64,000 nt of DNA from an uncultured Bdellovibrionales bacterium (GTDB lineage Bacteria > Bdellovibrionota_C > UBA2361 > SZUA-149 > DAOLCO01): the NCBI GenBank assembly GCA_964353175.1, contig CAYGUX010000005.1, positions 84,373 to 148,372 on the forward strand. Direction: 5' to 3'. Positions 25,522 to 41,000 of this stretch are shown here, one piece after another. The notes beneath the pieces are model-generated. The model saw only the letters and a program-made list of their open reading frames with translations, ran no database searches and was not told where the DNA came from. Both the position numbers and the translations under genes were made by a program. How positions within the stretch are numbered: position 1 is the stretch's first letter; every line of letters begins with the position of its first letter.

Positions 25522-26343
25522 CTATTTCTTTTGTGCATATTTATCACAGAAATCTTTCCCCTCACCTTCTATTGCAAGTACACAACTATCTTTGAAAGTT
25601 TTTTTAAGACCCCTCGGCCCTGCTTTAGCTGCTGGAAGAAACAATTCAGAACTTGGAATGTTTTTTAATTTAAAGAGTACAAGTTCTCTAATCTCTACCC
25701 TGAGGCTTGAAGTTTTTGTTTCACCGCTTGTAACTTGGAAATACGAGTTGGCACTAATATCATTTAAGGTATCAATACTAACGCCAGTAATATAACTATT
25801 GTCCTGATTGTATGGACTGAAATCATCATTAACTTTAGCATATACCGAACTAATAAAGTTCCCAGGTAGGACTAGAAAACTTAATGCATGCCAATCTAAC
25901 TCTTGTGATTCTAAAGTGCTAACAGGTAAAGGTGAAAGAGTGTACCATCCACCAGTTCCATCCTGATCCTTTAAATAGAACTCCAATCTAGTACTTGTTC
26001 TCAATCTTATCAACGACAATGCCCAGCCGGCATAGGGAGCGGTTTGGCTGTCATAATTAGTCACTAGTCTTTGTCTTTTATCTAGTGGTGGCGCTTGAGT
26101 ATATTTAAAATAGAAGCTTAATAAGATAGGCTCCGCATCAGATGGAAATAGATCACCATCTGACTTTAGAGAAAAATAAGAAGATTCTTTTGGTTCCGCA
26201 TTTTTCAAATCACCAATTTCAGACTGGCTAGTCTTAGATGATTTGATTTTTAAGGATTTGCTTTCACGATTACAACTAGCAGTCGTAATGCCAATGCATA
26301 AAAAAATAAAAAGAATTTGAAGTGATTTTTGGAGGCTTAACAT
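25522..26343 (-). CDS. Lipoprotein with a jelly-roll (LamG/concanavalin-like) appearance
   Basis: Lipobox ITTASC. Beta-rich sequence with GWALSLIRL...WHALSFLV. Confidence 0.3.
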   Translation of the reverse strand: MLSLQKSLQILFIFLCIGITTASCNRESKSLKIKSSKTSQSEIGDLKNAEPKESSYFSLKSDGDLFPSDAEPILLSFYFKYTQAPPLDKRQRLVTNYDSQTAPYAGWALSLIRLRTSTRLEFYLKDQDGTGGWYTLSPLPVSTLESQELDWHALSFLVLPGNFISSVYAKVNDDFSPYNQDNSYITGVSIDTLNDISANSYFQVTSGETKTSSLRVEIRELVLFKLKNIPSSELFLPAAKAGPRGLKKTFKDSCVLAIEGEGKDFCDKYAQKK

Positions 26344-26399
26344 TAAGCCTCCAAAAAATTAGAAATAAGGAACAAAAGTAACCCTTATTAATTAGGCAA

Positions 26400-26969
26400 T
26401 TATTCAGCCTCGGAAGCTTCTTCCTCTGCTTCTTCTGTCGGTGCCTTCTCTTGCTTTTTACGTTTAGCTTTTTCGAAAGCAATCATGGCTTCTTCGCTCG
26501 CTTTTCTTTCCTCCGCTTCGGTTGCCTTCATTGCTTCAACTCTTACAATGAATGTTCCAATTACGTCAGAATGAAGTTTAATTTTGACAGTGTGATCGCC
26601 TAACTTCCTTAGAGCATCAGTGATTAGAATTCGTCTTCTATCAACTGAGAATCCATCTGCAGTGAGCTGTTCAGAGATGTCTTTTGCACTAATAGAACCG
26701 AATACTCTTCCGCCATTTCCAACTCTAAGTCCAAGCTTAACTACACGTTGAGCCCACTCAGTTTTAGATGCTTCAGCTTCTATCTTCAATTTTTTCTTTT
26801 TAACTTCAACTTGACGTAACTTATGAGCGATTTCTTTTGAGCTACCTGCTTTAGATTCTACTGCGAATCCATTTGGTAAAAGAAAATTCCTAGCGTAACC
26901 AGGTCTTACGTTTACAATCTCTCCAATATCTCCCAAACCACTTACGTCATTGGTTAACAAAATTTCCAT
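26400..26969 (-). CDS. rplI: 50S ribosomal protein L9 with a charged C-terminal extension
   Basis: MEILLTNDVSGLGDIGEIVNVRPGYARNFLLPNGFA is canonical L9. 189 aa, against ~150 typical, because of the EAE-rich tail. Confidence 0.9.
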   Translation of the reverse strand: MEILLTNDVSGLGDIGEIVNVRPGYARNFLLPNGFAVESKAGSSKEIAHKLRQVEVKKKKLKIEAEASKTEWAQRVVKLGLRVGNGGRVFGSISAKDISEQLTADGFSVDRRRILITDALRKLGDHTVKIKLHSDVIGTFIVRVEAMKATEAEERKASEEAMIAFEKAKRKKQEKAPTEEAEEEASEAE

Positions 26970-27009
26970 GCCAATCCTTATTTTACTATTTCAAATCTCA
27001 ATTTAAACT

Positions 27010-27462
27010 TTAAGCTGAAGCTCCAACATCGTCCGCATCATCTTGTAAATCATCTTTATCATCACCATCACCAGCTCCATTTCCACCAAAAGTAGAAACA
27101 TGAGGTGGTCTATACCCGTAGGTAAAGTCACTCTTTAGTCTTCCATTAAGATCCGGTGAAAAATCATTTTTAGTCATAATCGAATTTCGAAGGACTTCAT
27201 CCATAAGGCTGATCTGTCTTCTGAGGTCAGCTACGATACTACCTAAGCCATTAACATTAACAGCTACAAATAATCCGTATTTGTAATTGTTAATTGGGTA
27301 AGCTAAAGATCTTTTACCCCAGATTTCTCTTTTTTCAACTACTCCAGCGTGATCTCTAGCGACTTCTTCGATTTTTCTCAATCTTTCTTCTAAAACGCTA
27401 TCTTGTGTATTTGGATTGAATACCAAAAGCAATTCATATTTTCTTTGTTTTTCTGATATCAT
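27010..27462 (-). CDS. rpsF: 30S ribosomal protein S6 with an acidic tail
   Basis: YELLLVFNPN...VEKREIWGKRSLAYPI is canonical S6. Poly-Asp C-terminus. Confidence 0.9.
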   Translation of the reverse strand: MISEKQRKYELLLVFNPNTQDSVLEERLRKIEEVARDHAGVVEKREIWGKRSLAYPINNYKYGLFVAVNVNGLGSIVADLRRQISLMDEVLRNSIMTKNDFSPDLNGRLKSDFTYGYRPPHVSTFGGNGAGDGDDKDDLQDDADDVGASA

Positions 27463-27544
27463 ATTTCTCCCTTAATGCGCATACTCACTCGATATTCGCG
27501 CAATTTTTACTCCAACTCTTTAGTTTTTAAATTATTCAAACTTA

Positions 27545-28183
27545 TCAAGCTTGAATGCTTCTTTCTAAGATCTTTCCAAATTCCATTCTAGGTACTTCCG
27601 TAGTTAGTTCTTGATATAATTTCCTAGCAACTCTACTTAGTACTTCCTTTTCTTTTATAGCATCGTCCTTTTTCGACTTTGATAAAACCCAATCACTTAC
27701 CTCTACGAATCTTTCATCACTATCAACAAGATCCCTTGGATGGCCTATACCTATTCTAAATCTAAAAAACTCTCGACTACCCAGTATATTAATAATACTT
27801 TGTATGCCCCTATGCCCACCAGCACCACCCCCTACTTTTAGCTTCAAATTACCTGATTTGAAGTCTAACTCATCATGAGCCACTAGTAGGTTCATCGGTT
27901 CGGAAGATAAATTCATGTCCTTATAAAATTTAATGGCGGCCAATAAGGGCTCTCCACTAAGGTTCATAAAGGAAATTGGTTTTACCATCCTTAGCACCCT
28001 TCCAAATGATAGGGAGCAACTAGAAATAATATATTTATCTCTTTTTACCTCCGACCAATTAGATCCAAATTCATTACTGAGTAGATCTAAAAATTCAAAA
28101 CCTGCATTATGCCGTGTTCCCCTATATCGTTCACCTGGATTTCCAAGACCAACGACATAGAGACTTTGAGCGTCCTTACTCAA
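27545..28183 (-). CDS. pth: Peptidyl-tRNA hydrolase
   Basis: LYVVGLGNPGERYRGTRHNAGF and HDELD motifs. Confidence 0.9.
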   Translation of the reverse strand: MSKDAQSLYVVGLGNPGERYRGTRHNAGFEFLDLLSNEFGSNWSEVKRDKYIISSCSLSFGRVLRMVKPISFMNLSGEPLLAAIKFYKDMNLSSEPMNLLVAHDELDFKSGNLKLKVGGGAGGHRGIQSIINILGSREFFRFRIGIGHPRDLVDSDERFVEVSDWVLSKSKKDDAIKEKEVLSRVARKLYQELTTEVPRMEFGKILERSIQA

Positions 28184-28189
28184 AGACCA

Positions 28190-28819
28190 CTACTTTTTAG
28201 CTGCTGGAGCAGCTACTACTGGCTTTTCCTCTTCTGCTGTTTTTGGTGCTACGGCCGCTCTCTTATCAACAAAAGCAGTTACGATCATAAGCCCTTCAAC
28301 GCACTTCAACTTAACACCTTCTGGTAAATCTAAATCACTTGCGTGTAAAGATTCTCCTGCCAATAAGCTTGTAATATCCAAAACAAATTCTTTCGGAATT
28401 TTTGTGGCTTTAGCTTCAATACTAACTTCGTAAACCATCTGGTTAATTGTCGCAGTTCCTTGCCTAACGCAGTCTGGAGAACCTTTTATAATGACAGGAA
28501 TACTTACTGCTACTGATTGGTCTTCAGTAACAGCTAAGAATTCTACGTGCATTAAAGTACCTTTGATTGGTTCCACTTGCACAGACTTAACCAAGCCCAT
28601 CAGACCATCAAGGTCTTTGTAGCCTGAGAATTTAAATAGTTGTGAATGCGGCTTTCCTCTGGCTTTAAGGCCAAATGTATGTGCATCCATTACAAAGGAT
28701 TTTGCTTCATGGTCCTTTCTATAAACCACTGCAGGAAGCTTACCTGCCGACCTTTGACGCCTTGAATCACCAGATCCAATGCCTGCTCTTTCTGTAATCT
28801 CTAATTCTATGACATCCAC
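28190..28819 (-). CDS. rplY: 50S ribosomal protein L25 / general stress protein Ctc
   Basis: RRQRSAGKLPAVVYRKD N-terminal motif. 209 aa, the long form with a Ctc C-domain. Sits in the conserved prs-rplY-pth arrangement. Confidence 0.85.
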   Translation of the reverse strand: MDVIELEITERAGIGSGDSRRQRSAGKLPAVVYRKDHEAKSFVMDAHTFGLKARGKPHSQLFKFSGYKDLDGLMGLVKSVQVEPIKGTLMHVEFLAVTEDQSVAVSIPVIIKGSPDCVRQGTATINQMVYEVSIEAKATKIPKEFVLDITSLLAGESLHASDLDLPEGVKLKCVEGLMIVTAFVDKRAAVAPKTAEEEKPVVAAPAAKK

Positions 28820-29055
28820 TAGTTCACCTAAAAATCTATAAGAATATAATTATTCAGTATTTACGGGGCGGGAGACTATAAAATGGTACCTATTTTATCA
28901 ATAGGTAAATGGGATATATTTTGAACTAATTTGAAAAATATGACTTTTTTAACCATAAAAGCGCATAATACTGACTATATTAATGCTTTGTCCGGCCTCG
29001 AAAGTATGATTTTTTGCAATTTACTTTATCTTTTAGAAGAATTAGTAAAAACAGC

Positions 29056-30012
29056 TTACTCTTCTCCAAAGAGTAAGCTTACCGAAGAATCCTCATGAAT
29101 ACGCCGTATCGCTTCCCCTATTAGTGGGGCAACTGACAAACGGGCTATCCAATTATTATGTTGATTGGAGTTTAAGTCCGGGTGATAAATGGAGTCGCTA
29201 GTGATAATTTTCTGGATTTTACTATTGGGAATAAGTTCTTTCGCATTGCCTGATAATACAGGGTGAGTAGCAAGCGCATAAACTGACTTTGCACCCTGCT
29301 CTAAGAGTGCTTCTGCGGCTTTCACCATCGTACCACCAGTATCAATCATATCATCTATGATAATCGCTACTTTAGAAGACACGTCTCCAACTACATTCAT
29401 CTCCGCTACTTCGTTTGGAGCGGTTCGCCTCTTATCTATTATTGCTAAACTAGCATCTAATCTTTTCGCGTAAGCTCTTGCTCTTGCTACTCCTCCAGCA
29501 TCGGGAGAAACAATTGTAATCTCTTCTTGATCAAAATGTTCTTTTACATAATTTAGTAATACTGGTCTCGCATATAAATTATCAACTGGAACGTTAAAAA
29601 AGCCCATTACTTGGCCTGCATGCAAGTCCATGGTTAGCACCCTGTTTGCACCGGCGCAAACAATCAGATCAGCTACTAACTTAGCTGTTATTGCTACTCT
29701 TGGTTTAGTTTTTCTATCCTGCCTAGCGTATCCAAAGTATGGAATTACGGCAGTAATCCTTTCTGCACTTGCTCTTCTCAAGGCGTCCATTATGATTAGG
29801 AGCTCCATCAAGTGATCATTACCAGGAGTGCTTGTGCTCTGAACTACGAATACGTCATGCCCTCTAACGTTATCCTTTATTTCGACTCCTAATTCACCAT
29901 CGCTGAACCTACGTATATCGCACCGAGTAAGATCCACGTTCGCAGATTTTGCAATTTCTTCTGCTAATGGGGGGTTAGATCTACCTGCTATTATTGAAAG
30001 AGGACCGCGCAT
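29056..30012 (-). CDS. prs: Ribose-phosphate pyrophosphokinase
   Basis: PRPP synthase blocks (DLHAGQVMGFF, the PRPP-binding loop IIDDMIDTGGT). 318 aa. Confidence 0.92.
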   Translation of the reverse strand: MRGPLSIIAGRSNPPLAEEIAKSANVDLTRCDIRRFSDGELGVEIKDNVRGHDVFVVQSTSTPGNDHLMELLIIMDALRRASAERITAVIPYFGYARQDRKTKPRVAITAKLVADLIVCAGANRVLTMDLHAGQVMGFFNVPVDNLYARPVLLNYVKEHFDQEEITIVSPDAGGVARARAYAKRLDASLAIIDKRRTAPNEVAEMNVVGDVSSKVAIIIDDMIDTGGTMVKAAEALLEQGAKSVYALATHPVLSGNAKELIPNSKIQKIITSDSIYHPDLNSNQHNNWIARLSVAPLIGEAIRRIHEDSSVSLLFGEE

Positions 30013-30220
30013 AATAATTAATTACCTGTTTATCTCTTAGCTGATTAAATACTCTAAGAATTCTAGCTATTTATTAAAAATAAGTCCACTACTGTCATTT
30101 TAGCATGTTATTAGCGAACAAATGAAATATGATTCATTAAAAATTGCAGATTTATAGATTATTGTCTTAACAACATTTTCAAGGGTAAACTGCATAACAT
30201 AATATAAAGACCTTATAATT

Positions 30221-31246
30221 ATGAACTGTAGAATTCTCCTCCTAGTAACATCTCTATTTTTTGCCGCATGTAACGGGCAAGATGGCCTCCAGAAACAGCT
30301 CACCGAAGCTTTGGGCCTTAAAGGACCGAAAAAGACAGGTACGCAGTTGTTGCCTAGTAAAGAGGATAAAACAGCCTTATCTAATTCTATCCAAGGATGC
30401 CCCAAGGATTCTTCATTAGCTGGTCGAGCTTTCCCAAGAGGGAATATGCAATATTGTGCATACAAAGATGAAAAGGGGCTGGAGATCAAACATGGAGAGT
30501 TTAGAAGGTGGTATTCGAATGGGAAATTTGAAGCTAAGGGTCAATTTCAAGATGGGGAGATCGAAGGACTATATCAAACATTCTATGAGACTGGTCAGAT
30601 CAAAGATCAATGTAACTACCTACATGGGCAAGCCAATGGACTAAAGACTACATACTCTAAGGAAGGTAAAAAACTGTCCGTGGAGACCTTTAAATCTGGA
30701 TTCAAGGAAGGACTATCTGTTAAATATGGCAGGAATGAAACAATTCTAGAAAAAGGTAGTTATAGTGGTGATTTGAAAAATGGTTTATGGGAACTCTTTA
30801 ACAAGAATGGGGTACTCAGAGAAAAAGCTGAATTCAGTCAAGATGTGCGTCATGGTAAGAACATAAAATACAATAAAAAGGGGGCCCTACTCTCTCAAGG
30901 ATTTTATAGTCACGACAAAGAATTGGGACACTGGATATATTTCAATAATCAGGGATTAAAAAAAACGGAAGGTAACTACGTAGATGGTAAAAAACATGGT
31001 AGGTGGGTTGATTATGGCCGAAATGGTGAGGAGGTTAGAAATACATTTTTTGATTACGGCAGGAAGTTAGACTCGGTTACAGTTAAACAGAATTCGGGGG
31101 CTGGAGGCCAAACTCAAGGATTCGGTAAGGGAGATATATTTGGAGAGGAACCTATTATTCGCCCTAGGACTAATAACTACGAAAGACCACGCCAAGAAAG
31201 TAATCGCCCTAAACCATTAGAAAAAGAAGGTTGGAATCCATTGTAG
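30221..31246 (+). CDS. MORN-variant (YwqK-like) repeat lipoprotein
   Basis: Lipobox FFAAC. About 8 tandem ~23-aa repeats of the form G.W..Y..NG.....G.Y..G...G. Confidence 0.5.
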   Translation: MNCRILLLVTSLFFAACNGQDGLQKQLTEALGLKGPKKTGTQLLPSKEDKTALSNSIQGCPKDSSLAGRAFPRGNMQYCAYKDEKGLEIKHGEFRRWYSNGKFEAKGQFQDGEIEGLYQTFYETGQIKDQCNYLHGQANGLKTTYSKEGKKLSVETFKSGFKEGLSVKYGRNETILEKGSYSGDLKNGLWELFNKNGVLREKAEFSQDVRHGKNIKYNKKGALLSQGFYSHDKELGHWIYFNNQGLKKTEGNYVDGKKHGRWVDYGRNGEEVRNTFFDYGRKLDSVTVKQNSGAGGQTQGFGKGDIFGEEPIIRPRTNNYERPRQESNRPKPLEKEGWNPL

Positions 31247-31297
31247 GCCATTACCTCGATCTTTCCACTTCTTAGATACTGTAGTATCAATGTATAT

Positions 31298-31729
31298 ATG
31301 GAAAACGCGATTAAAAAAACATCTTTTGAAGAGTTAACAACTAGCACTATTAATTTATCGGAGATACCTGTTACTATTTCAGTGTCGCCGATAGAAAGAG
31401 ACTCGGATCCCAATAGTGCTATTTTTGTTTTTTCATACACAGTCCGAATTGTTAATAATTCGCTTAAGGATATTCAGTTAATAAATAGACATTGGAAAGT
31501 TTTCTCTAACAATAGGCAAATAGCAGATGTAAAGGGCGATGGAGTTGTTGGTCATCAACCCCAATTTAAGCCTACTGATTCATTTGAATATACCAGTTAC
31601 ACTGTAATTAAAGACCCAGTAGGAGAAATGTCTGGATCTTTCACCTTTGTTACGGATGATGGAATGTTTTTTGATCTTCCAATAGACCCATTTAAATTAT
31701 CTTACTTAGAACGCCTATCACTACATTAG
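31298..31729 (+). CDS. apaG: ApaG domain protein (DUF525)
   Basis: Conserved ApaG blocks: RHWKVFSNNRQIADVKGDGVVGHQPQFKPTDSFEYTSY...GEMSGSFTFVTDDGMFFDLPIDPFKL. Confidence 0.7.
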   Translation: MENAIKKTSFEELTTSTINLSEIPVTISVSPIERDSDPNSAIFVFSYTVRIVNNSLKDIQLINRHWKVFSNNRQIADVKGDGVVGHQPQFKPTDSFEYTSYTVIKDPVGEMSGSFTFVTDDGMFFDLPIDPFKLSYLERLSLH

Positions 31730-31755
31730 TAGCGCAATTCTATTTACTAGATTTT

Positions 31756-32265
31756 TCAAGGCAAAACCAAGTACCTCGATACAAACAACCTCTCCTCTTC
31801 CTCTTCAGTTAAGATATCCTCCCCCACCCATACATTAAACCCTGAGTGGCTCCAGGATCTCATTAGATTAACATCGTCCTCCGATAGAAGATCTCTCTCA
31901 AGAAACGCATTTAATACTTTCTCCTGAGAGAGTTCTGTCAGAAGCTCAGTATCTATCTCAGGTAGTTCTTGATACTCGCCACTAGGAGTTATCACCCCAG
32001 GAAGCACAAGACTAGGCACATGGGGATGAGGAACTAAAATAGTCTCATTCAGGGTCTCTGAAAAAATGTGACCTCGCTTCGCTGTACAGCTGGGGCATAA
32101 CACTCTCTCCTTACACGAGAACGCTATCAGCTCTGAGTGATTACACTCCTCACGATGCGCTCTAGCGCAGCCATGTCTCAAGATCCCGCAATTAAGGTAC
32201 GCATCAAAGGACTGGGGGGACATTCGCTCTAAGAAACCCATACCGCTCCTCGAACAGCTCGTCAT
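31756..32265 (-). pseudogene. IS91-family (Zn_Tnp_IS91 + partial Y2/HUH) transposase remnant, truncated, in a G+C-rich segment
   Basis: CNHSELIAFSCKERVLCPSC...ILVPHPHVPSLVLP aligns with the IS91 zinc-binding domain and the start of the HUH region (CGHERVSYNSCRNRHCPKC...LPVPYFHVVFTLP). MRSWSHSGFNVWVGEDI...RLFVSRYLV resembles the SWxHSGFSVH...RLARY block. The protein is only 169 aa (~400 expected) and the catalytic Tyr half is absent. The local G+C is visibly higher than the flanks. Confidence 0.5.
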
Positions 32266-32592
32266 AACTCCTCTCGGTAGTTAAACACAAGGCGATAAAG
32301 GGCGCTCTCCTCGGGTTTGCGACGAGAGTACTCATGCAGCCTAGAGGCGTGCTTTGACCAGATCGGATAAGGTAGTTCCACCTAGCGTTATCGCTAAAAG
32401 GGGGGTGAAAATCCCAGGGAAGGGTGAGAAATATTGAAAAGTTGGCGATATCAGCGGGCTATCTGTTTTTAGAAGCCCAGTCAATACACGCTGTTGATCC
32501 ATGCGTTTAATAATCTAAGTTGCCTTTCTATTTGCTTATCGATATATTTTGGTTGAGGCGTTGTACTTAAACTAACTTAAATTATTATACCT

Positions 32593-33612
32593 ATGCTTTC
32601 CCTAAATTCAAAATACGCAAACTTTTTTATCTTTTTGTTCCTTGCGTATGGATTGTCTTTTGTACCTTCTCAGTCGGTCAGTGCGGATGATAAAATCATA
32701 CCAAACTTTAAGATCGGTTACATTCCTATCGTTGATCATTTAATACTTGGAGTAGCTAAGAAAAGAGAAGGAGATGATTTAAAAAGCTTTAATCTTGATC
32801 CCATTCGTTTCCCGGATATGGGTACGGTAGCTGAAGGGATTAGATCAGGGGATTTAGATGGTGGGTTTTTGTTGGCGCCACTTGCTTTTCAGGCAAAACT
32901 AAAAGGAGCTAAGATAAAAATATTGGCTTTGGGGCATAGAAATGGGAGTGCGTTTGTGGTTAGGGTTAAGCCTGGTATTGATTCCGTAAAGGATTTACGC
33001 GACAAAACTATAGCTATCCCACACCGATTTTCAACCCATAATATGCTTTTGCATATGTTTACTTCTAAGGAAGGATTGATACCTAACAGAGATTTTAAGG
33101 TTATTGAGTTAGGGCCTACAGAGATGCCATCCGCATTAGCTGGAGGAGTAATAGATGGGTATATCGTTGCGGAGCCAATTGCGGCTAGGAGCGAAGTGCT
33201 TGGGGTCGGAAAAGTATTGGTACTTTCAAAGGATATCTGGAAGGATCACCCAGATTGTGTGTTAGTCATGGGTGAAGACGTCATATCTAAATTCCCTCAA
33301 GCAGTAGAGGAGTTTCTTGAAAGTCTAGTAAGGGCAGGAATTTATGCGGAAGTTAATAGAGAAGAAAGTTCAGAGATAGGGTCTAAATTTTTAGGACAGC
33401 CGATAGAAGCATTAAAAATTTCAATGATGAAACCGAAGGACAGAGTTACTTTTGTGAATTTAATCCCTGAAGTCAATGAGCTGTCTAGAATTCAAGACTA
33501 CATGGCGAATGAGATGAATCTCTTTCCTAAAAAAGTGGATTTAAATAGTTTTATAGATGCTAGTTTTATTAGAACAGCATATGATAATTTAGAAAGCGCC
33601 AATAAAAAGTAA
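32593..33612 (+). CDS. ABC transporter substrate-binding protein, NitT/TauT (SsuA/NMT1-like) family
   Basis: Signal peptide. NMT1/SsuA-like fold cues. The permease and ATPase genes follow. Confidence 0.65.
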   Translation: MLSLNSKYANFFIFLFLAYGLSFVPSQSVSADDKIIPNFKIGYIPIVDHLILGVAKKREGDDLKSFNLDPIRFPDMGTVAEGIRSGDLDGGFLLAPLAFQAKLKGAKIKILALGHRNGSAFVVRVKPGIDSVKDLRDKTIAIPHRFSTHNMLLHMFTSKEGLIPNRDFKVIELGPTEMPSALAGGVIDGYIVAEPIAARSEVLGVGKVLVLSKDIWKDHPDCVLVMGEDVISKFPQAVEEFLESLVRAGIYAEVNREESSEIGSKFLGQPIEALKISMMKPKDRVTFVNLIPEVNELSRIQDYMANEMNLFPKKVDLNSFIDASFIRTAYDNLESANKK

Positions 33613-33628
33613 GTACAAGGACTTAAAA

Positions 33629-34408
33629 TTGAAGATTGGTAAACGCATTAAAGAGCTATCTCTTCCTCTGTTTGCCATAATGTTATTTGTTCTTATATGG
33701 CATATAATAGCAGGCAGTGGTTTATTCTTAACTGAGTTATTCCCATACCCCCATGAAGTTTTTTATGCTTTTTTAGAGGTATTAAAAAGTGGAGATTTGG
33801 CAACGAATTTGGTTTCTAGTTTGTTGCGTGTGGCAATGGGATTTGCTATCGCTGTAATTCTTGCGGTTCCTTTAGGCCTTTTGATCGGATGGCATAGTAG
33901 TTTATGGAAGTCTCTTTATCCGCTAATACAGATTTTTAGAACGATTTCACCTGTGGCTTGGATCCCTTTGGCAATTCTCTGGTTTGGTATAGGTGATGCG
34001 CCAGCCATTTTTATTGTTGCGATCACTGCTTTTTTCCCTCTTTTGATTTCATGTGTTTTTGCCGTGAAAAGCATTGATCCCCTACTCATAAAAGTTGCAA
34101 GAAATTTTGGTGCCACTGATTCGCAAGTGCTTTGGAGGGTTATTTTGCCAGGTAGCATTTCCTCGATTATGATTGCTCTTAGAGTGTCTTTAGGTTTTTG
34201 TTGGATGATAATCGTTGCTGCGGAAATGGTGGGAATGCGGTCTGGCTTAGGTTATATGATATTGGATGCTAGAAACTTTCTTAGAACTGATTTAGTTATG
34301 GCTGGAATGATAGTAATAGGGCTTGTGGGTTTAGTTATAGATAGAATAATGACAGCCTTGGAAATTAAGTTTAGAAAACATTTAATTCCCTTGGAGAGTA
34401 GAAAATGA
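33629..34408 (+). CDS. ABC transporter permease (SsuC/TauC-like)
   Basis: Six TM helices and an EAA-like loop (AAEMVGMRSGLGYMIL). Confidence 0.8.
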   Translation: MKIGKRIKELSLPLFAIMLFVLIWHIIAGSGLFLTELFPYPHEVFYAFLEVLKSGDLATNLVSSLLRVAMGFAIAVILAVPLGLLIGWHSSLWKSLYPLIQIFRTISPVAWIPLAILWFGIGDAPAIFIVAITAFFPLLISCVFAVKSIDPLLIKVARNFGATDSQVLWRVILPGSISSIMIALRVSLGFCWMIIVAAEMVGMRSGLGYMILDARNFLRTDLVMAGMIVIGLVGLVIDRIMTALEIKFRKHLIPLESRK

Positions 34409-35160
34409 AAGAACATTTTCTTTCTATCGTTGATTTAAAGAAATCCTTCGAAGGCACCCAGCTCGTTTCTCCCGTATTGGACATAGCATCTTTAAATTTG
34501 GCACAAGGAGAGTTTGTTTGTATACTTGGTGCTTCTGGTTGTGGAAAGTCTACTCTTCTAAATATAATAGCTGGGTTCGATAAACCTACCGGTGGAAAAG
34601 TTTTGTTAGAAGGGGCTTTAATCCACGCAAGTAACCCAAATTGTATATTAGTATTTCAAGATTTTGGTTTATTTCCATGGAGAGATGTTTTGGGGAATGT
34701 CTCTTTTGGCTTAGAATTTGGGAATAAGCCCAAAGAAGAGATAGAAGCTATCGCGAGAGAATATATTGACCTTGTAGGGTTATCAGATTTTGTGAATAGT
34801 TATCCTCATCAACTGTCTGGTGGAATGAAACAGAGAGTTGCTATCGCTCGGGCATTGTCCGTGGAGCCAAAGGTTCTTTTAATGGATGAACCTTTTGGGT
34901 CTTTGGATGCATTGACTAGATTAAATATGCAGGATGAGCTCACTCGTATCTGGATGAAGACAAATAAAACTGTTCTATTTGTAACGCACTCTGTTGATGA
35001 GGCTGTTTACCTGGGAGATAGGGTTATTGTCATGGGTAGTAGACCAAGTGGAATAAGGAAGATTTGGGATATTGATATAGATCGGCCCCGTCGAAAAGAC
35101 GACATGAGAATGTTGGACTTCAAGATTGAAATTCTTAAAGAATTGGGCGTTGCTAACTAA
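34405..35160 (+). CDS. ABC transporter ATP-binding protein (SsuB/TauB-like)
   Basis: Walker A GASGCGKST, the LSGGMKQR signature, and Walker B LLMDEPFGSLD. Confidence 0.88.
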   Translation: MKEHFLSIVDLKKSFEGTQLVSPVLDIASLNLAQGEFVCILGASGCGKSTLLNIIAGFDKPTGGKVLLEGALIHASNPNCILVFQDFGLFPWRDVLGNVSFGLEFGNKPKEEIEAIAREYIDLVGLSDFVNSYPHQLSGGMKQRVAIARALSVEPKVLLMDEPFGSLDALTRLNMQDELTRIWMKTNKTVLFVTHSVDEAVYLGDRVIVMGSRPSGIRKIWDIDIDRPRRKDDMRMLDFKIEILKELGVAN

Positions 35161-35240
35161 AGCAAAAATCTACTCCCCGAGACTGTAAAATAAAGTGTGT
35201 AAGGGAGAGTTTTTTCACTTCATTTCAATACAATAGAATA

Positions 35241-35339
35241 GGTACTACCCTCTTTTCTCCTATTATTATTCACCGTGATTAAAGGCACTTACACATTCAA
35301 CTACCCTAACATGCTAAGTATAAGAAAGAGGGTAGTACC
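35241..35339. repeat. 15-bp perfect inverted repeat (GGTACTACCCTCTTT ... AAAGAGGGTAGTACC) with a ~69-nt spacer, between convergent genes
   Basis: Read directly: the left arm is at 35241-35255 and the right arm at 35325-35339. The right arm ends at the stop codon of the minus-strand receiver gene. Confidence 0.6.
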
Positions 35340-35761
35340 TATGAAGGGCCCTCCCCTTCAGCCATTTCCCTTAAGTTATCTGCTGAATATGGTTCAAAAA
35401 GAAAACCGTCTACTCCATTAAGCATATTGTCGGCGATGATTTCATTCTGTTTGCTACTTGGTTTAAGTACGGTAATAAAAGCCCATTGTTTGCCTTTAGG
35501 AGTCTTCTTAGCTTCCTTTATGAAATCAGACACACTTTCTATGGTAAAACGATGTGAAATTGTGACAACATCAATTGATTCAAAACCATTTCCAAAGTTA
35601 AGGCCCTCTTGCAGAGAAGAGCAAAATAAAACTTTCTTGAAACACGGCAAGCAGAGTGCAACATCTTTAAGCATAGACCTACTCTTGCCATCAGAATCAA
35701 TAATTAGGATGCTGTATATATCAGACGTTGCCATTTCTCGATTGGACCTCAGGATCCCCAA
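35339..35761 (-). CDS. Stand-alone receiver (REC)-like domain protein
   Basis: ILIIDSDG acidic pocket, a candidate phospho-Asp in IDVVTISH, and a conserved Lys in VLKPS. 140 aa. Confidence 0.45.
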   Translation of the reverse strand: MGILRSNREMATSDIYSILIIDSDGKSRSMLKDVALCLPCFKKVLFCSSLQEGLNFGNGFESIDVVTISHRFTIESVSDFIKEAKKTPKGKQWAFITVLKPSSKQNEIIADNMLNGVDGFLFEPYSADNLREMAEGEGPS

Positions 35762-35920
35762 TTGGGAATTTTCTTATGCCACTAAACAAGTCGGCCAACT
35801 AGGCTAATTTACTTAATCAAAACAGTAAGATTTTATCTAATCCACTGCTTTTATTGAAGTTCGCAGTCAGCCAATTCTTGCGAATGCTCACCAAAAATGC
35901 TGCTTGGGGAGGGTTAAGAA

Positions 35921-37045
35921 CTACTCTACGACTCTTCCAATACCGTTTCGGATCTGCTTAACCACAAATGTGTGACTAAAATACTTACCGCCTTCTTCAT
36001 CTTCAACATAAGAAAACTTCCCCTGGTTACCATCAAAATTAGAAACTACTTTAAAAATATCCATTAAAGAAGTAAAATTATTAGTAGGTTTTGCCCCAAA
36101 GCCACTTGCAACCACATCTGCCATGTCATACGCATTTCCTGCCATGGGCATTTGAGCATCTAGCTTATATTTGGCTTCATACTTTTTCACAAAATCATCT
36201 TTCACTTTATAATAACTATATATAGCTCCCTCTACATACTGACTATTAGGTAACAATAATGAAGATTCTATTAAGTTTGTGCTATAAATATTAAAGTCAT
36301 ATCCCACATCTTTAGCTTGTCTAATAAAAGTCAGAATTTGGGCTGGCAACAAAAAAAGTCCTAAATTTTTTACTTTCCGAGCCTTGAGTTGCAACACAAT
36401 CGATCTAAAATCCAATTCCGATGGGTTCACCGTAGCAATGACATCTAAGTTCTCGCCCTTAGAAAGATTTGCCTCAAAAGCAATGAGCATAGAATTTATG
36501 TAACCCATCTCCGTTTTAACTATAAAAAATTCTTTTTCTCCGTTTTTTCTCAACTGACTCAGTAAAGGCCTTATGTATCTAGCTGAGTTATCATGAGCTC
36601 TGATAACATTTTTACTATGCAAGGAAGACGCTTCATCAGAAGTGAAACAAAGAAGGAGCTTATGCTCTCTATCAACAATTGGAGCCAACGCACTGCAAGC
36701 AGGAGAACCAAAAGAAAAAAATAGATCAACTTTATCTATTGTATCAAGCTTCCTGAAGGCGCTGATTGAAGACTTAGCATCATATTGATCATCTTCGTAG
36801 ATATAATTAACGAAATCCACTTTATCTGGATTTTCGCTTCTATAAAGCTCTATGCCATTTTTGATTGCGATTCCAAAATCAGCGAGTGGACCAGAGAGAG
36901 GAAGAATTACTCCGACCTTAAGAGGATTAGCTTCAGCTTTGCTTTGCAAACCCAGCAAAAAAACAACACTTAGCAACAATAAGAACTTAGAAATGGTTTT
37001 AGAAAATAAGTACATTACAAAAGGAAACCTATAAACTAATAGCAT
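35921..37045 (-). CDS. Periplasmic solute-binding protein, LivK/Peripla_BP_6 family (paralogue B)
   Basis: KVGVILPLSGPLADFGIAIKNGIELYR. The TAATG stop/start overlap with paralogue A indicates coupling. No permease is nearby. Confidence 0.65.
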   Translation of the reverse strand: MLLVYRFPFVMYLFSKTISKFLLLLSVVFLLGLQSKAEANPLKVGVILPLSGPLADFGIAIKNGIELYRSENPDKVDFVNYIYEDDQYDAKSSISAFRKLDTIDKVDLFFSFGSPACSALAPIVDREHKLLLCFTSDEASSLHSKNVIRAHDNSARYIRPLLSQLRKNGEKEFFIVKTEMGYINSMLIAFEANLSKGENLDVIATVNPSELDFRSIVLQLKARKVKNLGLFLLPAQILTFIRQAKDVGYDFNIYSTNLIESSLLLPNSQYVEGAIYSYYKVKDDFVKKYEAKYKLDAQMPMAGNAYDMADVVASGFGAKPTNNFTSLMDIFKVVSNFDGNQGKFSYVEDEEGGKYFSHTFVVKQIRNGIGRVVE

Positions 37046-38151
37046 TACTCTATTACTACCGCTATTCCATTTATAACTTGCTTAACTACTATAGGATATT
37101 TAAAATATTTACCCCCCTCCTGATCTTGAACGTAAGAGAAATTACCAAGTACCCCTTCTTGTTCTTTTACATTTTGAAATATACTCATTAGGGTTTCATT
37201 ATCTCTTTTCATCTCAGATTTAATTCCGTTGGCTAAAATACTCACCATATCATATGCACTTCCCCCAAAAGGCAATTGAGAATCCTGCATATACCTTTCC
37301 TTATAAATCAATACAAAGCTTTCTTTCAAACTGTGATATGGATAAATGGAGCCCTCCAATCCCTCTGAATTAGGCAACAAAATAGCAGACTCCGTCATAT
37401 TAGTACTGAAAATATTAGGGGAAAATCTATTTTCCTTAGCCTGCTTCATAAAAATCACCATTTGCTCAGGCATTAGAAATAATCCAAGAGCTTTGATGTT
37501 CTTTAGTTTGGATTTTAAAATTAAATTTCTAAAATCCAAATCACTGGGGTTCACGCTCCCTACTTCCACTAAACTCTCCCCCTCAATTAGATTCCTCTCT
37601 AATCCCTTTTTCATTGATCTAAGATAACTATTTTCAACATCAACTACGCTAAATTCTTTTACATCTCGTTTTCGCAAATACTCCAATAATCCCCGCATAT
37701 ATTGTGCGCTATAGTTCATCGTTCTAATCACTAATTTTCTATCCACGGTGGGGGCTTCATCGGCACTGATATTAATTAAAATCTTACCATCTCGCTCTAA
37801 AATTGGAGCCAACGCACTAGCGGCAGGAGCACCAAATGCAAAAAATATATCGACTTTGTCAATGGTAGAGAGTTTATGGTAAGCACTAATAGAAGTCTTA
37901 GAATCATAATGATCATCTTCATAAACAAAATTGAGGTGTTTCACTTTAGTAGGATATTGAGAACGATATAACTCAATTCCATTCTTAATAGCATTCCCAT
38001 AATCAGCTAAAGGCCCAGAGAGAGGGAGAATAACACCGACTTTTAGCTTTGTAGACTCTCCCGAAACTCCAGTACAACAAAAAGCAAGAACCAAGAATAA
38101 TAAACTAAATAATCGTCCCATTCTCTCTCCTTTTCCTAAACTGTTTAACAA
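37045..38151 (-). CDS. Periplasmic solute-binding protein, LivK/Peripla_BP_6 family (paralogue A)
   Basis: KVGVILPLSGPLADYGNAIKNGIELYR and a signal peptide. Close paralogue of the downstream gene. Confidence 0.65.
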   Translation of the reverse strand: MLNSLGKGERMGRLFSLLFLVLAFCCTGVSGESTKLKVGVILPLSGPLADYGNAIKNGIELYRSQYPTKVKHLNFVYEDDHYDSKTSISAYHKLSTIDKVDIFFAFGAPAASALAPILERDGKILINISADEAPTVDRKLVIRTMNYSAQYMRGLLEYLRKRDVKEFSVVDVENSYLRSMKKGLERNLIEGESLVEVGSVNPSDLDFRNLILKSKLKNIKALGLFLMPEQMVIFMKQAKENRFSPNIFSTNMTESAILLPNSEGLEGSIYPYHSLKESFVLIYKERYMQDSQLPFGGSAYDMVSILANGIKSEMKRDNETLMSIFQNVKEQEGVLGNFSYVQDQEGGKYFKYPIVVKQVINGIAVVIE

Positions 38152-38714
38152 CCTCTTCTGCTATCCCGTTAGGTTCTATGTGAGGTACGAACTCTTTTTC
38201 TATCCCCTCAAGCTCAGACAAGTTCAACCCCTCCCTCAACCTCAACACCCCACCACCTGTCATCAGACACTTCCTAAACTTCTTTTTAATCTCTAAAAAA
38301 GTATCGCCGGGCTCAATGAATAGAGTGTGTATCATCTAGGCCTCTAAGCTCTTTTGCTAATTCATCTAAGTGCAAACTTGCCAAGAACAAACTATCCGAA
38401 GAACCTGAAGTTTGTAGGATCCCTTCAAAAGAACACTGCGCTAAACTTTTCCCTTCTACGAAGTCTGTAAAACCAATGTCGGTAAAAGAGAATACCGATC
38501 CATATCCACCTTCTCTAAGTCTACCTTCGAAAGAGATAGTTGATTTTAGCAGATCAAGACTGATCCGCTCTTTTTCCTCATCTACTGAAATAAAAATCTT
38601 TGGGGAGCCATTCAGATTGCTGGCAACATGCGCCTGCACCGGCAAGGAAGATGCATCTAGAATACTTTTAGCTTTTTGGAAGAAGTTAGTTAGGACTTGT
38701 AACATTCCATTCAT
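38105..38714 (-). pseudogene. Two hypothetical ORFs (133 aa and 76 aa) that overlap by ~23 nt in different frames. This is either a frameshifted single gene or a tightly overlapped pair.
   Basis: The ORFs 38313..38714 and 38105..38335 share the overlap sequence ATGATACACACTCTATTCATTGA. I recognised no family. Confidence 0.25.
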
Positions 38715-38766
38715 TATAGAGTGAAATTCCCTCAGGTCAAGCCTTTGCTCTCATACTTTCAGGCTC

Positions 38767-39380
38767 TTATACTCGCTCGTCAAAGAAGTCCTGCAATAGA
38801 TTGGCTCTTTCAAACTGCCCATTGGCTCTAAAAGCCTCGACCAGTGAACCTACGGCATCTAGATTTCTCCATTGGGTCATTTTGCAAGCAGATTCAGCAC
38901 ACTGAACAGACCATTCTAGGTCTTGAACCTCATTTGAATTAGAATAGATCCTAGACATTTCTATATAAGGAACAGGATCTCTAGGATCAACATCCAAAGC
39001 TCTTCTAAACATCTCCTTAGCTTGAATAATCCTATCGCCCCCTAAAAATAACTCGGCTCTTAACATATAGGCCTCTTTAGGTGCTTCCCCAGTCGCAAGG
39101 CAACGCACCAACAAATTCTCTCCCACCACAAAGTCACACCCTCTTTAAGTTCGTAATGACTTAGTGCACAATCTATTACATGCCTTAAAGGAGCATCTAG
39201 ATTTAAGGATCTCAATGCATCTCTTAACTTCAAAACGGATTCCTCTAAAGCAGATCCTCCGATATTACTTAAAAGAAGAAGATGAACATACTTTGCTGTA
39301 ATTTCAACATTATTAGGAAGCACTTCTTTCCCAATCTCTAAAGTCTGAAGAGCAAATCTACTTTTACCCAGATATGACAT
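38767..39380 (-). pseudogene. TPR-repeat protein split into two overlapping ORFs by an apparent frameshift near 39125-39135
   Basis: The ORFs 39060..39380 and 38767..39129 are both TPR-like and overlap by 70 nt in different frames. Shifting one nucleotide into the other frame gives a continuous protein (...HYELKEGVTL / VVGENLLVRCLATGE...). Confidence 0.45.
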
Positions 39381-39391
39381 TTCAGTAGTTG

Positions 39392-39670
39392 CTATGCTGA
39401 ATAAGAGTTAATCGTCTGATAAAATCCTGTTTGACCCGAGGTTAGAGGCCTCGGGACTGAAAAAAGCCCAGTTAAATCAAACAGGAGACCTATGAAGAGG
39501 ATATCATATAAAACCGCTGGCTTAACAGTTCCTCGCTTTTTTAGAGCGCACGTTCGTGTGCGCTCTAAAGGCGGTCCTGCCTGCGGTACCATCCTGATAC
39601 CGCTTACGACAGCACAAGCCCGCTCAGAACTGTTAAGCCCGCCGTTTATTTTTCCCCCACCTCCTCCATT
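39392..39670 (-). ncRNA. Candidate structured RNA or leader element: a G+C-rich block of nested perfect hairpins, family unassigned
   Basis: Hairpins read directly (plus strand): CCTGTTTGA...TCAAACAGG enclosing CCCGAGG-ttagagg-CCTCGGG; TTTAGAGCGCAC-gttc-GTGCGCTCTAAA; GCGGTA-ccatcctga-TACCGC; and the long-range pair GGCTTAACAGTTC / GAACTGTTAAGCC. The block is followed by a T-rich and CCTCCTCC tract, and is much G+C-richer than the flanks. Strand is assigned only from its proximity to the TPR gene start at 39380. Confidence 0.3.
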
Positions 39671-39777
39671 TTAAGAGGTTCGACTTAATTCGCCATTTTG
39701 AGTTGTGCTATAAATCGGCTAATAAAAATTCTTGACCATATCTGATTGTATGCGTATAATAAAGAAAATATGCGCAT

Positions 39778-40035
39778 ATGAAAAATCGGCTTAATTTAAC
39801 TATAGATGAAGATTTACTTGTAAAGGTAAAGAAATTTGCCTCTGATTCGGGGGTTTCCTTGTCTAGTATTGTGGAAAAGGGGCTGGCTAGAGTAATTAGT
39901 CAAGAAGAGAATATTAATATTGATAAGCTGCTAAATGATTTTCATAAAAAGGCACTTGGCAAGAACTTTAAAGAACCTTCTGACATATTAATAAAAGATC
40001 TTTTACAAGATAGAAGGCAGAAAAAGTATTCGTGA
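39778..40035 (+). CDS. Type II antitoxin, ribbon-helix-helix (CopG-like)
   Basis: N-terminal LNLTIDEDLLVKVKKFASDSGVSLSSIVEKGL is an RHH pattern. 85 aa. Its stop overlaps the GTG start of the downstream PIN gene (GTGA). Confidence 0.55.
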   Translation: MKNRLNLTIDEDLLVKVKKFASDSGVSLSSIVEKGLARVISQEENINIDKLLNDFHKKALGKNFKEPSDILIKDLLQDRRQKKYS

Positions 40036-40442
40036 ACATTTTACTTGATGCCAATATTTATATTGATATAGCATGTAGGCCCAGTCTGCAGCTTGCCTCG
40101 GTTAACTTATTTAAGAAGCTAGTACTGTCCCCGGGAATCGATGTTTGTCTTGCAAGCTGTAGTTATACTGACATTTTTTATTTGATCTCTAAGCTAACTG
40201 AGAAAAAGCATGCCCTCGAATTCTTTCAAACTCTTGAAAAAGCTAATGTACAGTTTCTTGATTTTACTGAAAAGGAAATTCGTTTTGCTAAAACATTAAA
40301 ATTTAATGATCACGAAGATGCTTGCGTATGTGCAACTGCCGTTTTAAATAACTGTTCCTTAATAGTTACTAGAGATGTTAAAGATTTTAAAAATTCACCC
40401 ACTAAGATTAGAACTCCTAGCCAGTTTTTAAGAGAATTGTAA
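40032..40442 (+). CDS. vapC: PIN-domain toxin (VapC-like)
   Basis: N-terminal acidic residue in ILLDANIYID, a further acidic residue, and a C-terminal TRD. 136 aa. Confidence 0.65.
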   Translation: MNILLDANIYIDIACRPSLQLASVNLFKKLVLSPGIDVCLASCSYTDIFYLISKLTEKKHALEFFQTLEKANVQFLDFTEKEIRFAKTLKFNDHEDACVCATAVLNNCSLIVTRDVKDFKNSPTKIRTPSQFLREL

Positions 40443-40842
40443 GCGTTCGCTCGTCGTTAACATAAGACCACTTTAATCAACTAAATTGCCTTACATAAGA
40501 ATATTATTTACTCACAGCAGGTTTTATGCTTTCCTGGGGGTTGGGTTTAATTAAATTAAATCTAAGAATAATGCTTAGTTCCTAATCGTAAATTTAGTAA
40601 ACAAGAGAATGCTTTCATGTTAAGGATAGTGTCCGGAATCTTTCTGCTAGAGATCCGTCCTTTGCGAATGTTGAATTCCTGCAAAACAGCCTGTCGTAGT
40701 CGGTCATATTCTTAGCCATAAGTGACCAATATTGGTCTAAATTTTCATTTATTTACACACATCTTATGAAGTTGATGCTGTTAAGAAGTGGTCTAAGTAT
40801 ATGTAAAAAAAGGAAATGGGATATACCTAGGGATTTCCTCAG

Positions 40843-40892
40843 CCACAATTTATGGTATTGACCGCCTCGAAGGACCACTATATGTAGTGGTA
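40843..40892. promoter_or_regulatory. Candidate NrdR operator: two boxes ~33 bp apart, upstream of nrdA
   Basis: Box 2 is a near-perfect palindrome, ACCACTATATGTAGTGGT (40875-40892). Box 1, CCACAATTTATGGTAT (40843-40858), matches the acaCaAtATaTtGtgt consensus at about 11 of 16 positions. The pair lies 110-160 bp upstream of the nrdA ATG. Confidence 0.35.
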
Positions 40893-41000
40893 TGCTCACT
40901 TTTTACCTCTATCGGGAAAAAAGATATTAAAGCAAGGAATCATTAGAAAATAGAGAGATTTTAACAATACAATTGAGACATTCAAAGAGGAGATAATTCT

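Follow-up and report, generated by a model that had tools for sequence, protein, structure and literature searches.

Foreign DNA of an IS91-family lineage beside apaG in a low-GC bacterial genome: the decayed 5′ part of an insertion sequence

The window, that is, the whole 64-kb stretch of DNA that was analysed, has an overall GC content of 37.2%. All of its proteins fall into singleton clusters, and a whole-window Rfam search returned one tRNA-Met only. The gene for ApaG occupies positions 31298-31729 (121 bits on NCBIfam PRK05461, cut-off 106), and the genes for a NitT/TauT-type substrate-binding protein, permease and ATPase (ssuABC) occupy 32593-35160, so the first-pass annotation was correct in describing the neighbours of the feature studied here as apaG-like and ABC-transporter genes. 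Between them lies a 169-aa open reading frame (ORF) on the minus strand (31756-32265). The first-pass annotation took this ORF for the remnant of an IS91-family transposase in unusually G+C-rich DNA.

The ORF matches the Pfam zinc domain Zn_Tnp_IS91 (PF14319) with E = 1.2e-10 and 41.7 bits (cut-off 26.3) over residues 16-82, in agreement with the zinc-binding IS91 N-terminus that had been recognised by eye. Over the same residues, it scores 53.3 bits on the NCBIfam model ISCR_clade_Ia (NF052416) and 26.9 bits on transpos_IS91 (NF033538), both far under the whole-protein cut-offs (925 and 125, respectively), as is to be expected of a fragment. The first-pass annotation had proposed a HMMER search with two Pfam models; PF14319 matched, but Y2_Tnp (PF04986) gave no match on the ORF even at E ≤ 1. 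The assignment of the ORF's HUH region is thus transitive, made via its relatives. A search of 5.8 billion proteins recovered 42 of these, all 93-296 aa long and carrying PF14319, PF04986 or both. The closest, apart from the ORF's own product, are 69-72% identical across the zinc domain. One relative (P0034) is 89% identical over the SWSHSGFNVWVGEDI...RYLV block (SWxHSGF...RYLV), and three that carry PF04986 (P0002, P0005 and P0007) are homologous over this block, so its proposed resemblance to an IS91 segment is real. The ORF's own product is an NCBI-derived 161-aa protein (P0001), the sole member of its cluster among about 15 billion sequences.

All close copies of the element being damaged, the parent transposase was reconstructed as a composite of ~424 aa stitched from the closest relatives; the nearest intact ORF, at metagenome locus L015 (419-436 aa), is ~48-50% identical. 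On transpos_IS91 (cut-off 125), the composite reaches 180.8 bits, and the score of the intact ORF of L015 is 191.8 bits. The composite matches PF14319 with E = 9e-19 and PF04986 with E = 7e-21, both domains also being present in relatives, and it aligns with annotated plasmid IS91-family transposases at 96-99% coverage and 26-37% identity. These profile and protein matches support the assignment of the parent element to the IS91 family.

When the parent was mapped onto the window by tblastn, it resolved into four collinear pieces in three frames. Codons 1-38 of the transposase gene, tnpA (VELPYPIWSKHASRLHEYSRRKPEESALYRLVFNYREE), lie at 32268-32381 on the minus strand (frame -3, 61% identity), are visible in a three-frame translation and are not in the frame of the 169-aa ORF. 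Codons 40-58 (ERSYDELFEERYGFLRANV) follow at 32219-32275 (minus strand) in a third frame (frame -1), with the indels on either side seen against the metagenome copy L012. The zinc domain, codons 52-124, is at 32020-32238 (minus strand, 81% identity). Codons 186-273, which contain the HUH motif and the SWxHSGF...RYLV block before the truncation, are at 31766-32028 (minus strand, 70% identity).

The lesions were mapped base by base with a gapped DNA alignment to L012 (86-87% identical) and with the protein alignment. Relative to L012, 11 bp are missing at 32267|32266 and a net +1 shift lies near 32219, the two frame changes at the 5′ end. The ATG of the 169-aa ORF is fortuitous, having been created at the junction of the 11-bp deletion. 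In the C-x2-C pair, Arg (CGT at 32152-32154) stands in place of the first Cys: the window reads AHREEC versus AHCEEC in L012, L014, L016 and L018, and the Cys is kept in all full-length relatives. Parent codons 125-185 are removed by a 183-bp (61-codon) in-frame deletion with its junction at 32020-32033 (minus strand). This deletion is flanked by direct repeats, TTCCyCATCCCCAT. The window has one of them, at 32020-32033; L012 has both, at ~753-768 and ~938-951, 183 bp apart, and the two blast segments overlap on the window's single repeat. The 169-aa frame stays open because the deletion is in-frame.

The same deletion bears on the reading of LVPHPHVPSLVLP as the start of the HUH region, which needs correction. 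The VPSLVLPG part is the true HUH motif (HPHVH-SLVLPG), located 61 codons downstream in intact copies, but the LVPHPH part is the end of the zinc domain plus the start of the ‘PHPHKHLVFT’ strand. LVPHPHVPSLVLP is therefore two motifs fused by the 183-bp deletion. The HUH motif itself is altered from HPHVH to HPHVP (CCT at 32014-32016); the second histidine is present in L014, L016 and L017 (ungapped alignments), all relatives have HPHVH, and the proline occurs in the window only.

Homology with L012 stops abruptly at 31766, where L012 goes on as KCPLSLDRL..., and nothing beyond parent residue 273 is present. The Y-x3-Y tyrosines, found within RY[YF]GxYS at ~residue 333 of the parent, are absent there, and tblastn located none elsewhere in the 64 kb. 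They are the equivalent of Y249 and Y253, the essential tyrosines of IS91 (PMC5714925). The C-terminal CPKCG (CxxC) ribbon also lies beyond residue 273 and is hence absent as well. With 169 of ~424-436 aa, the ORF has less than half of the intact length and lacks the catalytic tyrosines, as first described. It is a chance reading frame through a pseudogene, with its stop codon within the host spacer.

Pieces of the element were found at 13 metagenome loci. At least eight related copies share 72-91% nucleotide identity with the window over shared segments and occur in unrelated contexts, which delimits an element of ~1.67 kb. The copies come from Logan SRR28161539 (L012), JGI (L014, L016-L018, L021 and L022) and ENA GROS21 (L005-L009), and those from these sources are 83-91% identical to the window. 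By blastn, identity to the window is 86-87% for L012 and for L014, 91% for L005-L009 and 72% for L004; among themselves, the copies are 70-90% identical to L012. Frameshifts occur in L012 and L014, internal deletions in L013 and L016-L018, a small inserted repeat in L004, and 5′ truncation in L005-L010. That each close copy is damaged differently argues against a conserved function of the window's ORF. The 3′ half of the element and its right end survive only in the metagenome copies.

The left end, upstream of tnpA, is defined by several of these copies. Strong homology to L012 starts at L012 position 380 in five others (L004, L016, L017, L018 and L021). L012 is itself truncated at the left, and the true terminus lies ~71 nt further out: a further ~71 nt, beginning AAAACATATAACCCCC, is common to L017, L018, L004 and the window, and in part to L021, and the flanks beyond it all differ. 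In the window, this outermost 71 nt of the terminus, AAAAACAGATAGCCCGCTGATATCGCC..., is at 32400-32470 on the minus strand, as placed by alignment with L017, L018, L021 and L004 and by an nhmmer profile of the left end. All four aligned copies contain AAAACATATAACCCCCT..., upstream of which divergence is complete. The best match of the left-end profile in the whole window is 32471-32420 (E = 0.043, 10.4 bits), and it abuts the strong homology. Eighteen nucleotides (32382-32399), still within the strong homology, separate the 71-nt terminus from the GTG start of tnpA. The left end had been placed at 32399, where L012 and the blast alignments stop and beyond which shuffled pairwise alignments were nonsignificant; this was revised when more copies revealed the truncation of L012. 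Imperfect direct and inverted repeats of 26-27 nt at 31683-31716 and 32556-32593 were also considered and were judged to be chance matches in AT-rich DNA, the homology-defined ends being elsewhere.

At the right end, L012 homology ends at one point in five copies with unrelated flanks, at ...GTTTTATGTTTTCCTAC(T/A)GGT, and the right ends of other copies finish CCTAC(T/A)GGT. A perfect palindrome, AGGTTTGGGTTAACCCAAACCT, occurs ~115 nt inside the right end in all five copies (5/5), and the left end of the copies has no convincing conserved palindrome. The two ends are unrelated to each other in sequence, and both are defined by homology boundaries in independent contexts. In IS91, terIS is upstream of the transposase gene (PMC13181058); named by position after IS91, the end retained in the window would be the terIS side and the lost one the oriIS side.

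The whole remnant of the ~1.67-kb element thus extends over 31766-32470 on the minus strand. What survives is the terminus on the 5′ side of tnpA together with the first ~60% of the gene, internally deleted; the 3′ part of the element is gone. Strong blastn homology to other copies is bounded by window positions 32399 and 31766, and weaker homology, detected with the left-end profile, extends to ~32470. The composition of the DNA follows these limits. The 705-bp remnant, with a GC content of 0.479, stands well above the mean of the window (0.372, sd 0.024; z = +4.5). No other stretch of the 64 kb is as rich in GC, and only sliding windows starting at 31753-31821 attain this value. The flanks are at 0.306 (36 bp, apaG side) and 0.336 (122 bp, ssuA side), and the step is exactly at the homology boundaries. 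The 169-aa ORF (GC 0.473) has the highest GC3 in the window, 0.488, versus a mean of 0.30 (sd 0.044) for the 59 long ORFs. Other copies of the element have a GC content of 0.44-0.45 independent of their flanks (0.37-0.45), so the composition is a property of the element.

The first-pass impression that the ORF is G+C-rich relative to its neighbours is confirmed by these values. A GC-rich tract upstream of the ORF, estimated at ~300 bp, also exists, but it measures 205 bp (32266-32470, minus strand). It is composed of the frameshifted codons 1-58 of tnpA and an 89-nt non-coding tract upstream of the gene, which in turn is made up of the 71 nt of weakly conserved end and the 18 nt. The DNA at 32471-32592 is an AT-rich host spacer. 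This spacer contains a sigma-70-like site (32520-32548), and an outward promoter for ssuA borne on the insertion sequence, which we considered, is unneeded.

Domain matches, the end-to-end homology of the parent, the related copies and the GC step all bear out the original reading of an IS91-family transposase remnant. The DNA at 31766-32470 is foreign, from a previously undescribed IS91-family lineage, and an ordinary kind of genomic fossil. We put at about 90% the probability that an IS91-family insertion sequence of ~1.67 kb has left a decayed and immobile 5′ fragment here. A tblastn search with the reconstructed parent found no second tnpA-like sequence in the 64 kb. A blastn search of the PLSDB plasmids with the remnant gave no match.

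How might the fragment have formed? We infer that the host, a bacterium of 37% GC that its best synteny matches suggest to be Oligoflexia-like, received an intact copy from a lineage of ~44-45% GC in the gap separating apaG from the operon for the NitT/TauT-type ABC transporter, and that this copy decayed stepwise. The start of tnpA would have been disrupted by the 11-bp deletion and the net +1 shift, and a Cys-to-Arg change would have cost the protein a zinc ligand. Slippage or illegitimate recombination at the two 14-nt direct repeats may then have excised 61 codons, so that the end of the zinc domain now runs directly into the HUH motif, and the second histidine of this motif would have become Pro. 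Finally, a deletion or rearrangement would have taken everything after codon 273: from the protein, the C-terminal CxxC ribbon and the catalytic Y-x3-Y tyrosines, and from the DNA, the oriIS-side end and the 3′ UTR in which the subterminal palindrome lies. With neither a nuclease nor an initiation end, the fragment would be unable to move.

The 169-aa ORF now most likely does nothing beyond marking an old point of insertion or rearrangement. Could it instead have been domesticated as a small zinc-finger protein, expressed as a regulator, for example as an inhibitor of related transposases like IS91 Orf121? Orf121, which has a zinc-finger motif, does regulate transposition (PMC13181058), the reading frame in the window is open across the in-frame deletion, and a public source lists a product of 161 aa. 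However, the first zinc-ligand Cys of that product is replaced by Arg, its start codon was made by a deletion and the native N-terminus has been frameshifted away. It stands alone in its cluster among about 15 billion sequences, the remaining copies of the element have decayed in quite different ways, and the window contains no intact copy to regulate. We consider domestication highly improbable. The window-specific substitutions comprise seven synonymous and six non-synonymous changes, a sample too small for neutral decay to be read from it; the rough dN/dS of 0.2 mostly reflects the period when the copy was active.

A second trace of the element may be present 8 kb off. Here, at plus-strand positions 40495-40541, which directly precede the region upstream of a ribonucleotide reductase gene, an nhmmer profile of five right ends points to a tentative solo relic of the other (oriIS-side) end, ...TTATTTACTCACAGCAGGTTTTATGCTTTCCTGGGGGT. 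The profile, built from the last 60 nt of five copies, matches 40504-40535 (plus strand, envelope to 40541) with 15.4 bits and E = 1e-3, and the next match has E > 1. Of 300 sequences simulated from the window with a second-order Markov model, none reached this score (maximum 13.5); for comparison, the genuine left end scores 10.4 bits with its own profile. The match is probably a relic of the element's other end, consisting of the terminal ~45 nt only. With up to three mismatches allowed, searches of the window for the oriIS palindrome and for the exact right-end pattern gave no match, and an antitoxin/PIN pair sits where the 3′ half of tnpA would be. A left-end-like match at 39037-39078 (plus strand, E = 0.53), ~1.5 kb upstream of the relic, was considered as the other end of a second, gutted copy and rejected; it consists of two short exact blocks only, inside a minus-strand ORF, with no tnpA homology from there up to the relic.

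Between this site and the relic is an unclassified, strongly folded, GC-rich element of 270 nt (39420-39690). An Rfam search of 39300-41050 at E ≤ 1 returned nothing, and blastn of the structured region at 39.4-39.8 kb against PLSDB gave no match.

The relic may represent an independent old insertion, or the other half of the remnant's copy, split from it by an inversion and then eroded. In the latter case, ~8 kb would have been inverted, and one of the two breakpoints would lie within tnpA. The relic is oriented opposite to the remnant, and the orientations and outward-facing positions of the two ends are exactly as expected after such an event. The relic has statistical support, and outside the two ends the DNA is native again, from the apaG stop codon on one side and from the region upstream of the ribonucleotide reductase gene on the other. 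Yet ~720 bp, comprising the 3′ half of tnpA and the 3′ UTR, is missing beside the relic, and the presence of the antitoxin/PIN pair in its place calls for an extra replacement event. Moreover, the ancestral adjacency of ssuA and the ribonucleotide reductase gene was found in no relative examined, and two independent old insertions fit the data equally well. We regard the splitting of a single copy by inversion as unlikely.

Slightly less likely again, in our estimate, is that the 8.8 kb at 31766-40541 is a unit between opposite IS91-family ends that was inverted or brought in by IS91-type rolling-circle activity. This interval contains ssuABC, two paralogous periplasmic binding proteins, the PIN toxin-antitoxin pair and the folded element. 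On its two sides are apaG and the ribonucleotide reductase genes, and in a related MAG these lie close together.

The first-pass annotation further suggested that the decayed copy marks a site of cargo delivery. By one-ended transposition, an IS91 copy could have arrived together with ssuABC, or with all of 32471-40494, making the remnant the edge of an island. In IS91, failed termination at terIS mobilises the DNA adjoining terIS (PMC13181058), and it is the putative terIS side of the remnant that faces ssuABC. Gene order also changes here. One MAG, L001, is colinear with the window over 25573-31729, a stretch that ends precisely with the stop codon of apaG; in another, L002, the ribonucleotide reductase gene adjoins the MORN and apaG genes, and in the window 9.3 kb lies between. 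The right-end-like relic stands at the far side of this block. However, L001 and L002 are distant (ApaG ~50% identical), and loss of synteny is expected anyway; a scan of genome contigs for ApaG identified three distant MAGs, at 46-52% identity.

Composition also speaks against cargo. The claim of a delivery site finds no support in ssuABC or the adjoining 122 bp, which are host-like: GC content falls to 0.336 immediately outside the end of the element, GC3 is 0.32-0.33 in ssuA, ssuC and ssuB and 0.28-0.38 in the rest of the block, versus a host mean of 0.30 (sd 0.044), and the block at 32471-40494 has an overall GC content of 0.377. The nearest ssuABC homologues (58-68% aa identity, tblastx) are on a contig of GC 0.372, none of whose called genes encodes an IS91 domain. 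In addition, a one-ended unit would not finish in an inverted oriIS end. Delivery of ssuABC or the larger block by one-ended transposition is, in our judgement, very unlikely, and we retain the reading of 31766-32470 as an immobile fragment.

For annotation, the consequence is that the 161/169-aa ‘protein’ would be better described as an IS91-family transposase pseudogene fragment. The remnant indicates that a low-GC, Oligoflexia-like lineage was once visited by a rolling-circle insertion sequence lineage that has no DNA-level counterpart in the plasmid database (PLSDB) and has so far been seen only as damaged copies in environmental metagenomes. Since it coincides with a synteny breakpoint, it can serve as a landmark for reconstructing rearrangements. 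The practical value is small, and the finding opens neither a new mechanism nor a long-standing question.

Insertion in the IS91 family is beside a specific tetranucleotide at the oriIS end and produces no target-site duplication. Members of the family move by rolling-circle transposition with an HUH, two-tyrosine transposase (PMC13181058, PMC5714925). The parent can be compared with the archetype, IS91 from the haemolysin plasmids of E. coli, and with IS801 and IS1294/IS1294b. As in IS91, a single protein of ~420 aa combines a zinc N-terminus, the HUH motif HPHxH and Y-x3-Y (RY[YF]GxYS), in that order, and the element appears to have two differing ends without terminal inverted repeats, with a perfect subterminal palindrome near the one downstream of tnpA (IS91 features from PMC13181058 and PMC5714925). 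Unlike IS91, the parent is only ~26-28% identical to annotated plasmid IS91-family transposases and has unrelated terminal sequences; it has no orf121-like gene, with ~89 nt between its left end and the start of tnpA. The copy in the window differs further from IS91 in being a dead fragment without the tyrosines and without an oriIS end.

The closest annotated relative found is a 445-aa protein, WP_224963446.1, from plasmid pIAE1 of Trichlorobacter lovleyi (NZ_CP058410.1). Its identity to the parent is 36.8%, with 96% of the parent covered, and its transpos_IS91 score is 173.9 bits. It differs in being from another phylum, intact and multicopy, with 14 matching places in pIAE1, and it is too distant for comparison at the DNA level.

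A likeness to ISCR elements is also apparent, in that they belong to the same HUH superfamily and the zinc region gives the fragment its best NCBIfam match (NF052416, clade Ia, 53.3 bits). ISCR elements are reputed to capture adjacent genes. However, the NF052416 cut-off of 925 is far above the scores of both the ORF (53.3) and the composite parent (129.9 bits), and the latter is below the 180.8 bits that the parent obtains on transpos_IS91. Also unlike ISCR, the element represented in the window has a defined end upstream of tnpA, common to several copies.

Synteny breaks at the 3′ end of apaG in each of the three comparisons, with the breakpoint at 31729/31730 in the window and at 6420 and 6423 in L001 and L002, two distantly related metagenome-assembled genomes. 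The window is colinear with L001 over 25573-31729 and diverges beyond, and L002 past the breakpoint runs into genes that are found at 11.2-14.6 kb of the window.

The IS91-family remnant beside apaG lacks its right (oriIS-side) end, the one downstream of tnpA. Some 8 kb from the remnant, in the opposite orientation, lies a sequence similar to the terminal ~45 nt of such an end (40495-40541, plus strand; nhmmer E = 1e-3); its score was reached in 0 of 300 simulated windows. It adjoins the upstream region of a ribonucleotide reductase gene; in L002, the ribonucleotide reductase genes adjoin a MORN gene. On its other side is a type II toxin-antitoxin-like pair (39778-40442, plus strand), consisting of an 85-aa ORF that overlaps by 4 nt a 136-aa protein with a PIN_3/PIN domain match (E = 1e-12). 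The pair is flanked by the right-end relic and by a structured GC-rich island, shortly downstream of which it starts.

The island spans 270 nt (39420-39690, plus strand) and has a GC content of 0.48-0.52, compared with 37% for the genome. Its predicted fold is very strong, with a minimum free energy of -99.9 kcal/mol where shuffled sequences give -64.4 (sd 4.7; z = -7.5), and includes long perfect stems, one formed by pairing of GGCTTAACAGTTC with GAACTGTTAAGCC and a second by TAGAGCGCAC-GTTCGT-GTGCGCTCTA. Inside it, a 60-aa ORF (39492-39674) is preceded by an AGGAG Shine-Dalgarno-like sequence. An Rfam search returned no matches at E ≤ 1, a plasmid search gave no match, and no further copy was found in the window or the collected loci. 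Possible identities of the island are a non-coding RNA, a MITE-like palindrome and some other relic of mobile DNA.

Two overlapping ORFs of 120 and 106 aa (38767-39380, minus strand) have a somewhat raised GC content (0.43) and TPR matches that are all sub-threshold; they may represent a frameshifted TPR gene. Two tandem paralogous genes for Peripla_BP_6 periplasmic binding proteins (374 and 368 aa; 35921-38151, minus strand) occur without neighbouring permease or ATPase genes.

Shortened forms of the element occur in metagenomes. Relative to L012, a metagenomic copy used as the coordinate reference, positions 1300-1544 are deleted identically in three JGI Ga0105046/49 contigs (L016, L018 and L020), with loss of the catalytic tyrosine region. 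The common deletion suggests a non-autonomous deletion derivative that occurs in several copies or in several samples. In ENA GROS21 metagenomes (L005-L009), a 770-bp unit (L005 3158-3927, L006 1245-2014) is 100% identical across at least two different upstream contexts and joins 130 nt of unrelated sequence to the 3′ part of the element from L012 coordinate 1079 onward. The 200-aa ORF that it encodes was present on 10 contigs in a look-up. Either a 5′-truncated derivative is propagating, or the unit is an artefact of assembling a repeat.

Right ends of this lineage, named by position after IS91, terminate in CCTAC(T/A)GGT, which makes NGGT a possible target tetranucleotide. About 115 nt from the right end, every copy (L012, L013, L014, L018 and L022) carries a 22-nt palindrome, AGGTTTGGGTTAACCCAAACCT, that is conserved without any change. 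It lies at 1843-1868 in L012 and at the corresponding place in the others, and is a candidate for the oriIS hairpin of this IS lineage.
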